A stretch of DNA of 64,000 nucleotides from Klebsiella phage RCIP0009, in sequence record OR532803.1; one strand, written 5' to 3'. Of the stretch, positions 58,400 through 58,768 are shown in pieces. Position numbers and translations under genes: made by a program. Under the pieces are notes generated by a model. The model saw nothing but the letters and a program-made list of their open reading frames with translations, did no database searches and was not told where the DNA came from. Every line of letters starts with the position of its first letter. Within the stretch, counting starts at the first letter, position 1.

Positions 58400-58478
58400 A
58401 GGATCTCCTTTCCTCTATTTAGCGGGGAACGGGATCAAAGCGGCCTGACGGGGTAATATAAAAATTTGAAGAAAATGC

Positions 58479-58507
58479 TTGACCTTTTAAAATCTTTGAT
58501 CTATAAT
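58479..58507 (+). promoter_or_regulatory. sigma70 early promoter P1
   Basis: TTGACC, 17 nt, TATAAT in an AT-rich island. Confidence 0.5.
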
Positions 58508-58594
58508 AATTATTAATTAAAATTTTATCAAAAAGATCCAACAAGATCAAGTAAAATTTAATAAATAATTTATTAAAAATTTTTAGATCTGATC

Positions 58595-58623
58595 TTGAAT
58601 TCATAAATTTTATGATCTATAAT
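58595..58623 (+). promoter_or_regulatory. sigma70 early promoter P2
   Basis: TTGAAT, 17 nt, TATAAT. The -10 context GATCTATAAT is repeated from P1. Confidence 0.5.
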
Positions 58624-58768
58624 ATATTAATATTTTATTTTATCATAAATTTTTATGAAGATCAATACCTAGATCTAATAAATTTTATGCTTTTTCTGAA
58701 AACTTTTCCTTTACCCCGTCACTAAATACTGGTACTATGTTCCCATATTGGAAATCAGGAAAAACAAA

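Follow-up and report, generated by a model that had tools for sequence, protein, structure and literature searches.

We analyzed an AT-rich intergenic island at positions 58420–58700 of a 64-kb stretch of DNA (64,000 nucleotides; hereafter the window) from Klebsiella phage RCIP0009 (OR532803.1). The island is flanked on the left by gene 3 on the minus strand (57869..58399), which encodes the tail completion or tail tube terminator protein according to the list of open reading frames (ORFs) and the annotation of PP889462.1 and KP27, and on the right by ORF262 on the plus strand (58769..59557), a conserved neighbor of 262 amino acids taken from the same list and matching phrog_7322 in PHROG. The window matches Klebsiella phage phi1_146007 (PP889462.1) at 100% identity, and KP15, KP27, Matisse plus some 100 further Slopekvirus genomes at 99–100%; the source phage is a Slopekvirus (KP15/KP27-like) within the T4-like Straboviridae. 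For genome-wide scans the whole genome of 174,447 bp was reassembled from the PP889462.1 record, for which the record position corresponds to the window position plus 93310.

The GC content of the island was 21.7% over 58420–58700, in line with the value below 25% given in the original prediction, and 15.6% in the core (58460–58690). It is the sole stretch of the window in which the GC fraction over 150 bp falls below 0.26, with a minimum of 0.113. The tetramer GATC, of which about ten copies had been claimed, is found at 58402, 58433, 58498, 58535, 58545, 58586, 58591, 58614, 58660 and 58672, corresponding to nine sites within 58420–58700 and to ten if 58402 is included. Two of these sites belong to the sequence GATCTATAAT in the −10 context (58498 and 58614), exactly as first described, and AGATCT likewise occurs twice (58585 and 58671). 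Mononucleotide shuffles yielded a mean of 0.51 GATC with a maximum of 5, none of 20,000 reaching the observed 9, and dinucleotide-preserving shuffles of the core yielded 0.81 ± 0.85 GATC compared with 8 observed, a number not reached in any of 5,000 shuffles. The excess, originally put at roughly ten-fold, is about 10-fold (dinucleotide, core) to 18-fold (mononucleotide) and thus survives the composition-aware control that had been proposed for it. About one third of the G and C bases in the core belong to GATC, and tetramers with the same four letters in another order number only 0–3 each. GATC is over-represented genome-wide, the window containing 399 versus 261 ± 15 expected, yet within the window no 281-bp segment is denser than the island, as no other segment of this length attains 10 GATC. 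The initial observation is confirmed by these data and is stronger than first stated. Dense GATC clusters are also present in coding regions, near 7122–7570 and 52539–53100 as well as at record positions 1917–2435 within the tail sheath gene.

The promoter scan recovered all three hexamer combinations that had been reported for the island, TTGACC-17-TATAAT and TTGAAT-17-TATAAT on the plus strand and TTGATC-17-TAAAAT on the minus strand, the latter at two sites. Predicted promoter P1 (58479..58507, plus strand, TTGACC-17-TATAAT) matches 11 of the 12 consensus positions, has a GATC (58498–58501) directly ahead of its −10 hexamer and opposes P4 (58522..58550, minus strand, TTGATC-17-TAAAAT), which carries a TGn extended −10 and a GATC within its −35 hexamer; the predicted starts of the two lie about 1 bp apart. 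In the same manner P2 (58595..58623, plus strand, TTGAAT-17-TATAAT, 10/12 match), with a GATC (58614–58617) directly ahead of the −10 and two further GATC just upstream (58586 and 58591), opposes P3 (58637..58665, minus strand, TTGATC-17-TAAAAT, again with a TGn extended −10 and a GATC within the −35), and here the predicted starts coincide. The original prediction was therefore right in placing strong promoters on both strands, whereas their layout is not simply tandem or divergent but consists of face-to-face pairs. The KP27 GenBank record labels P1 as a 'putative middle promoter' and P2 as a consensus promoter. We rejected the assignment of P1 as a T4-type middle promoter, as the MotA-box-like AATGCTTGA at 58474–58482 sits 19 bp from the −10 and not at about 12 bp, and a tblastn search using T4 MotA and AsiA sequences as queries did not find either protein.

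The two promoter pairs form two tandem units of about 115 bp (58478–58550 and 58594–58665), defined by direct-repeat families with a spacing of 115–116. Between them lies a central AT-rich palindrome (58544..58590), an inverted repeat with 23-nt arms 1 nt apart and with AGATC and AGATCT at its flanks. The repeat search also revealed a 42-nt imperfect inverted repeat bracketing the entire island, whose left arm (58446..58487) starts with TGACGGGGTAA and whose right arm (58680..58721) ends with TTACCCCGTCA, the two being 74% complementary; folded as single-strand DNA, the island closes on these arms with a z-score of −6.4 relative to shuffles. The island is 98.8–99.3% identical between KP15, KP27 and the window, and the copy number of the unit differs among isolates: R2_1 shows an additional, third unit (about 115 bp) that precedes an N gap, and VAC13 carries a 28-bp duplication in the unit region that adds two GATC.

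Beyond what had been noted before, the island is one of three copies in the genome, located at loci that match or neighbor T4 origins of replication. A GC fraction below 0.25 over 150 bp occurs in exactly three regions of the 174,447-bp genome: island 1 between gene 24 and uvsY (record 11072–11458, 7 GATC), island 2 between rnh and gene 55 (record 81205–81587, 9 GATC) and island 3, the one described above, between gene 3 and ORF262 (record 151736–152083, 9 GATC). The islands share 72–78% pairwise identity over about 90–145 bp, and five of the six genomic occurrences of GATCTATAAT fall within them. For the three cores, 5, 9 and 8 GATC were counted compared with 0.46, 1.04 and 0.81 in dinucleotide shuffles, none of 5,000 reaching the observed number in each case, and the spacing of GATC ranges from 5 to 54 bp. 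When 100-bp duplex windows are ranked genome-wide by instability, the three islands come first with z-scores of 6.2, 5.9 and 5.0, the next window reaching 3.5, and their single-strand fold z-scores are −4.9, −1.9 and −5.9. Searching a phage collection with the island returned 336 places in 118 Slopekvirus records, about three per genome, and the three positions were constant in all 118. A search of the literature on Slopekvirus, KP15, RB43 and phage origins yielded no published description of the three islands.

Across the three islands we identified five face-to-face sigma70-type pairs (two in island 1, one in island 2 and two in island 3). All ten paired promoters have a 17-bp spacer, the distance between opposing −35 hexamers is 71–75 bp, and the predicted starts of a pair lie 0–4 bp apart. 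Dinucleotide shuffles of the islands contained on average 0.023 such pairs compared with the five observed, a number reached in none of 2,000 shuffles, and promoter-like sites with a 17-bp spacer numbered 12 (six per strand) compared with about 2.9 (about 1.5 per strand) in shuffles. Two types recur, one ending in TTATGATC|TATAAT and the other, with an extended −10, in TTATGA|TAAAAT. A GATC lies within or touches the −35, the spacer or the −10 in each of the ten paired promoters. Island 2 additionally contains four GATC within 25 bp that lie outside every predicted promoter, and GATC itself therefore seems to be selected beyond the promoter word containing it.

The phage encodes a D12-class adenine methylase (Dam; PF02086). 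The virion DNA of KP15 is degraded by DpnI and therefore Dam-methylated, and KP27 DNA was left uncut by the same enzyme (PMC3620542). In the frameshifted assembly of Klebsiella phage CPRSB (OM971649.1), aligned to window positions 57990–60400, 15 of the 33 differing columns coincide with GATC, which accounts for 9% of the positions, and the changes are G>A in the first position of the tetramer or C>T in its last. These differences are probably methylation-linked base-calling errors rather than real variation, which would indicate methylation of the island sites. Dam- or SeqA-sensitive control of the island promoters, as proposed in the original prediction, appears plausible, because the promoters are non-random and each is associated with GATC, the phage encodes Dam and KP15 DNA is methylated.

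A search for related loci with ORF262 returned only five. ORF262 is found at the same site in Slopekvirus, in Pseudotevenvirus (RB43, RB16, Miller, GAP161 and others; about 80% identity) and in Pantoea phage Phynn (61%), with overall identities of 60–100%, and its presence at this site in three lineages shows that it is ancestral and not recently delivered. The AT/GATC island is absent from the locus in Miller, EkoM5VN and Phynn; the part of the locus that has been replaced is hence the non-coding island and not ORF262. In its place, a palindromic element roughly 170 bp long is present in Miller at the same three loci (rnh/55, 24/uvsY and 3/ORF262). The three Miller copies, found in KM236237.1 at 31940–32120, 137860–138040 and 102955–103135, are 83–84% alike and consist of arms GAGCGAAGCGA...CACGAACGAAGTGAGTG and a hairpin with the conserved AT-rich loop TTATATATAGAGAAAA. 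The hairpin stems differ between phages, with CTACAT/ATGTAG in Miller, GTACTG/CAGTAC in EkoM5VN and GTCCACT/AGTGGAC in Phynn, so that pairing is kept by compensatory change. No segment of the Miller genome is less stable than these three elements, which are also strongly self-complementary, with single-strand fold z-scores of −3.7, −9.2 and −4.4.

The Pseudotevenvirus element was detected at 182 places in 64 records, about three per genome, including RB43 and RB16, and in Phynn a copy was seen at one locus, gene 3/ORF262. It resembles the islands in occupying the same three loci with the same copy number, in forming the least stable segments and in its bracketing inverted repeats, whereas it differs in its GC content of about 32%, its 1–2 GATC per copy and the lack of detectable sequence similarity. 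The element is unannotated in the Miller and RB43 records and we found no published description of it. A pattern scan of viral contigs with TTATATATAGAGAAAA gave mostly chance matches in AT-rich contigs. Position, copy number, low stability and palindromic form are thus conserved across the genera, with the sequence having been replaced jointly in all copies; this combination of conserved position and character with joint sequence turnover argues for a function at the DNA level that is common to the three sites. The AT/GATC version with promoter pairs is specific to Slopekvirus.

The three loci invite comparison with the origins of T4. The T4 record places oriF at the beginning of uvsY, with the uvsY transcript as primer RNA. 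It also shows rnh and gene 34 meeting at a divergent junction and annotates oriE inside gene 5, with a primer antisense to this late gene and at a distance of 3.4 kb from the gene 3/2 junction. OriG is identical to ori(34), and for oriF and oriG about 100 bp each are required, comprising a promoter and an A+T-rich unwinding element where the R-loop forms (PMC3016281). OriE relies on an early promoter, all three origins are situated at transcription strand switches in late-gene regions, and no motif is common to the T4 origins (PMC3016281). Island 1, directly upstream of uvsY, closely matches the position of oriF, and island 2 lies at the divergent rnh junction, which in T4 borders gene 34, the gene from which oriG takes its name ori(34). 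As in oriF and oriG, the predicted promoters would fire into extremely AT-rich, easily melted DNA: at the level of sequence, P1–P4 would direct transcription into a putative unwinding element, and the islands rank as the least stable 100-bp windows genome-wide, in keeping with easy unwinding. In contrast to oriF and oriG, the island promoters are of the host sigma70 type and not of the MotA type, the islands measure 250–350 bp compared with about 100 bp, they are built from GATC-packed face-to-face pairs, and they share sequence with one another, which the T4 origins do not. With oriE, island 3 has in common predicted early promoters, a late-gene neighborhood near genes 2, 4, 53 and 5 and repeated units, and the antisense primer of oriE resembles the leftward promoters of island 1, which face into the antisense of gene 24. 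However, oriE contains 12-nt iterons together with repEA/repEB, whereas the repeat unit found here is about 115 bp and no repE homolog was seen.

Considering these features, we propose that the islands may act as transcription-primed unwinding elements, i.e. T4-type origins under Dam or SeqA control that also feed the flanking genes, a reading to which we assign a probability of roughly 40%. Host RNA polymerase would open the AT-rich core from either side, and short transcripts would stay annealed as R-loops priming the leading strands. Read-through would provide early expression of ORF262 on the right and of genes 3 and 1 on the left. The GATC sites in promoters and core would enable the methylation state to tune or shut down firing, given that infecting DNA would be fully methylated and newly replicated DNA hemimethylated; such control might be exerted directly, on RNA polymerase or on melting, or via host SeqA as at oriC and P1 oriR. 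Endonuclease VII, UvsX/UvsY, RNase H, gp59, gp41/61, Dda and UvsW are all encoded by the phage. The cumulative GC skew has two minima, one at island 2 and one 2.7 kb from island 3.

Several observations weigh against an origin function. The skew minima are confounded, because skew tracks transcription direction in T4-like phages, and island 3 is not located at the position of oriE. In a T4 control covering 61 kb, oriF had a z-score of about 2, placing it among the least stable 1.5–2.3% of windows, oriE was unremarkable with 1.2–1.7, and the least stable windows lay away from the known origins; helix instability alone therefore does not mark origins, since the known ones are only mildly unstable. 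The five promoter pairs are not independent events, because they are partly derived by duplication, and the outward promoters serving uvsY, gene 55, rnh and ORF262 would by themselves explain why the intergenic DNA is rich in promoters, with no origin required. Moreover, a sigma70 promoter is lacking inside the Pseudotevenvirus element, whose sole promoter lies downstream and points away, and the T4 layout of a promoter followed by an unwinding element is for this reason not ancestral.

The most serious competitor, which we regard as possible though on balance somewhat unlikely, takes the islands as regulatory regions only, that is as clusters of strong early sigma70 promoters with AT-rich DNA upstream, which in the case of island 3 would serve ORF262 and genes 3, 1 and 57A, would be modulated by Dam or SeqA and would play no role in replication. 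The good consensus matches, the existing annotation of P1 and P2 as promoters in KP27 and the absence of any terminator found between P2 and ORF262 are in agreement with this explanation, as are the need for early expression of the deoxynucleoside monophosphate (dNMP) kinase encoded by gene 1 downstream of gene 3 and the position of the three islands ahead of genes with pre-late expression in T4 (uvsY, gene 55 and rnh). The presence of a GATC within the −35, the spacer or the −10 in every one of the ten promoters, a trait of established Dam-sensitive promoters, would also be accounted for, and the T4 control, where instability was not diagnostic of origins, points the same way. On the other hand, early promoters elsewhere in the genome belong to a different type, which carries no GATC and has a stem-loop set between its −35 and −10, and the AT/GATC design is confined to the three loci. 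Paired promoters with mutually excluding polymerases appear poorly suited to maximal mRNA output, and the leftward promoters of island 1 run antisense to late gene 24 and meet no minus-strand gene over 11 kb; lacking a target gene, they imply that mRNA production cannot be the sole role. The Pseudotevenvirus counterparts, furthermore, keep the locus, the palindromic form and the instability without internal promoters. Even if the islands were only promoters, they would still represent an unusual Dam-linked design of opposed promoters.

A more far-reaching variant of the origin proposal, which we consider quite improbable, would make the islands methylation-gated bidirectional origins. Each face-to-face pair would launch primer RNAs to the left and to the right from one shared start within the unwinding element, full Dam methylation of the infecting chromosome would license firing, and hemimethylation following the first round, through SeqA or a loss of promoter activity, would shut the origins and thereby drive the switch to replication by recombination. 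In the sister genus, the hairpin element at the three corresponding loci would serve this purpose.

Alternatively, the islands might be architectural or recombination elements, either cruciform-prone, easily melted palindromes that bind nucleoid proteins (H-NS, integration host factor (IHF) or a phage protein) or seeds of recombination-dependent replication cut as cruciforms by endonuclease VII, with the promoter-like hexamers arising incidentally from AT-rich symmetry (a 'promoter island'). The fold z-scores of the Slopekvirus islands and of the Miller elements, the inverted repeats bracketing the island, the variable unit copy number between isolates and the presence of endonuclease VII and UvsX/UvsY in the phage are consistent with such a role, and the joint sequence change in all three copies fits frequent recombination between copies. 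Nevertheless, the promoter geometry, with ten 17-bp spacers and 12 sites where about 2.9 are expected, is too regular for symmetry alone, and the GATC excess would be left unexplained, so that we judge this possibility to be distinctly unlikely.

The further suggestion in the original prediction, a recombination hot spot that delivered an internal protein (IP)-like cassette, amounts to a recently acquired mobile cassette or an insertion resembling a miniature inverted-repeat transposable element (MITE) that brought ORF262, and is largely refuted and essentially excluded: the 42-nt inverted repeat and the homing-endonuclease gene adjoining ORF262 in phage KMI9 speak for it, but ORF262 is ancestral at its site in three lineages, the islands hold the same three positions in all 118 Slopekvirus records checked, the flanks of the inverted repeat differ (gcggcc versus ctaaat) and, as read from the sequence, include no target-site duplication, and no similar DNA was found in a plasmid collection.

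Returning to the proposed methylation-sensitive origins, we compared the islands with other systems in which GATC is functional. Escherichia coli oriC contains 11 GATC in 245 bp. The islands resemble oriC and phage P1 oriR in their density of one GATC per 16–38 bp (one per 22 bp in island 3), in the location of these sites in AT-rich DNA, in the occurrence of AGATCT and in being part of Dam-methylated DNA, the putative unwinding region containing 8–9 GATC in about 260 bp compared with 0.8 expected. None of the islands contains a DnaA box (TTATNCACA) with up to one mismatch or a match to the oriC 13-mer GATCTnTTnTTTT with fewer than two mismatches, and the search for IHF sites in the islands gave nothing convincing; T4-type phages are not known to depend on DnaA. 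Among promoters sensitive to Dam, IS10 pIN and dnaA P2 are examples that carry GATC in the −35, spacer or −10. The island promoters share this property with IS10 pIN/pOUT, dnaA P2 and P1 cre in ten out of ten cases, and IS10, too, has face-to-face promoters. They differ from these examples in comprising ten predicted promoters in three islands and in that the paired predicted starts coincide rather than yielding overlapping antisense RNAs.

The early promoter stem-loop (PeSL) cassettes of RB49 and phi1 likewise provide strong sigma70 promoters in a T4-type phage (PMC2839356). In contrast to these, the island spacers are AT-rich and devoid of a GC-rich stem-loop between −35 and −10, and the island promoters occupy three fixed loci instead of flanking variable ORFs. 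PeSL-like early promoters with a GC-rich stem-loop (aaaaagcccTTGACTtcggtcggggctttttgcTATATT) are present elsewhere in the window, at about 22247, 33645 and 38975 on the minus strand and 7943 on the plus strand (record positions 115557, 126955, 132285 and 101253).

We know of no T4-like phage other than T4 itself in which origins have been defined experimentally, and because the T4 origins lack a common motif, origin recognition in this family has remained vague. Two genera with more than 180 sequenced genomes, including many Klebsiella therapy phages, carry a three-copy element at fixed positions, which offers a handle on origin mapping and on the use of Dam methylation by lytic phages beyond protection from restriction. 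It is also a handle on why assemblies break at the same three places, where the breaks fit repeats or an AT-driven loss of coverage. The assemblies of phiKp_15, phiKp_16, phiKp_18, phiKp_23, W8-3 and W8-4 start, end or split within islands (window 58528–58602), and the R2_1 assembly has a run of N at the island.

The genes flanking the island have candidate late promoters of their own. A late-promoter-like GCTAAATA (58416..58423, minus strand) is located 16 nt ahead of the gene 3 start codon and a corresponding ACTAAATA (58721..58728, plus strand) 40 nt ahead of ORF262, both assigned by their motif. In the source genome nCTAAATA is also found upstream of genes 53, 6, t and inh, and TATAAATA upstream of other late genes. 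As both nCTAAATA motifs lie just outside the inverted-repeat arms, late expression of gene 3 and ORF262 would be independent of the island. The amino terminus of ORF262, MTHLKKFKEFLTE|G, resembles the capsid-targeting sequence and protease cleavage motif of T4 internal proteins, and together with the late-promoter-like motif upstream this start suggests a possible role of ORF262 as an internal protein of the head. The annotation of two small ORFs inside the island was treated as spurious, because Pfam and PHROG scans gave zero matches for them, and an Rfam scan of 58200–59000 matched no family.

Downstream of ORF262, the KP27 annotation projected onto the window places a bidirectional terminator at 59565..59586 in the interval to gene 2, which follows on the minus strand. 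In one Slopekvirus, Klebsiella phage KMI9, a homing-endonuclease gene is located between ORF262 and gene 2 (KMI9 locus 1806–2321). The terminator region 59558–59590 (33 bp) recurs with 100% identity in the unrelated Escherichia podophages vB_EcoP_WFI101126 and EcK-vB, and is annotated as a terminator in one of these two records.

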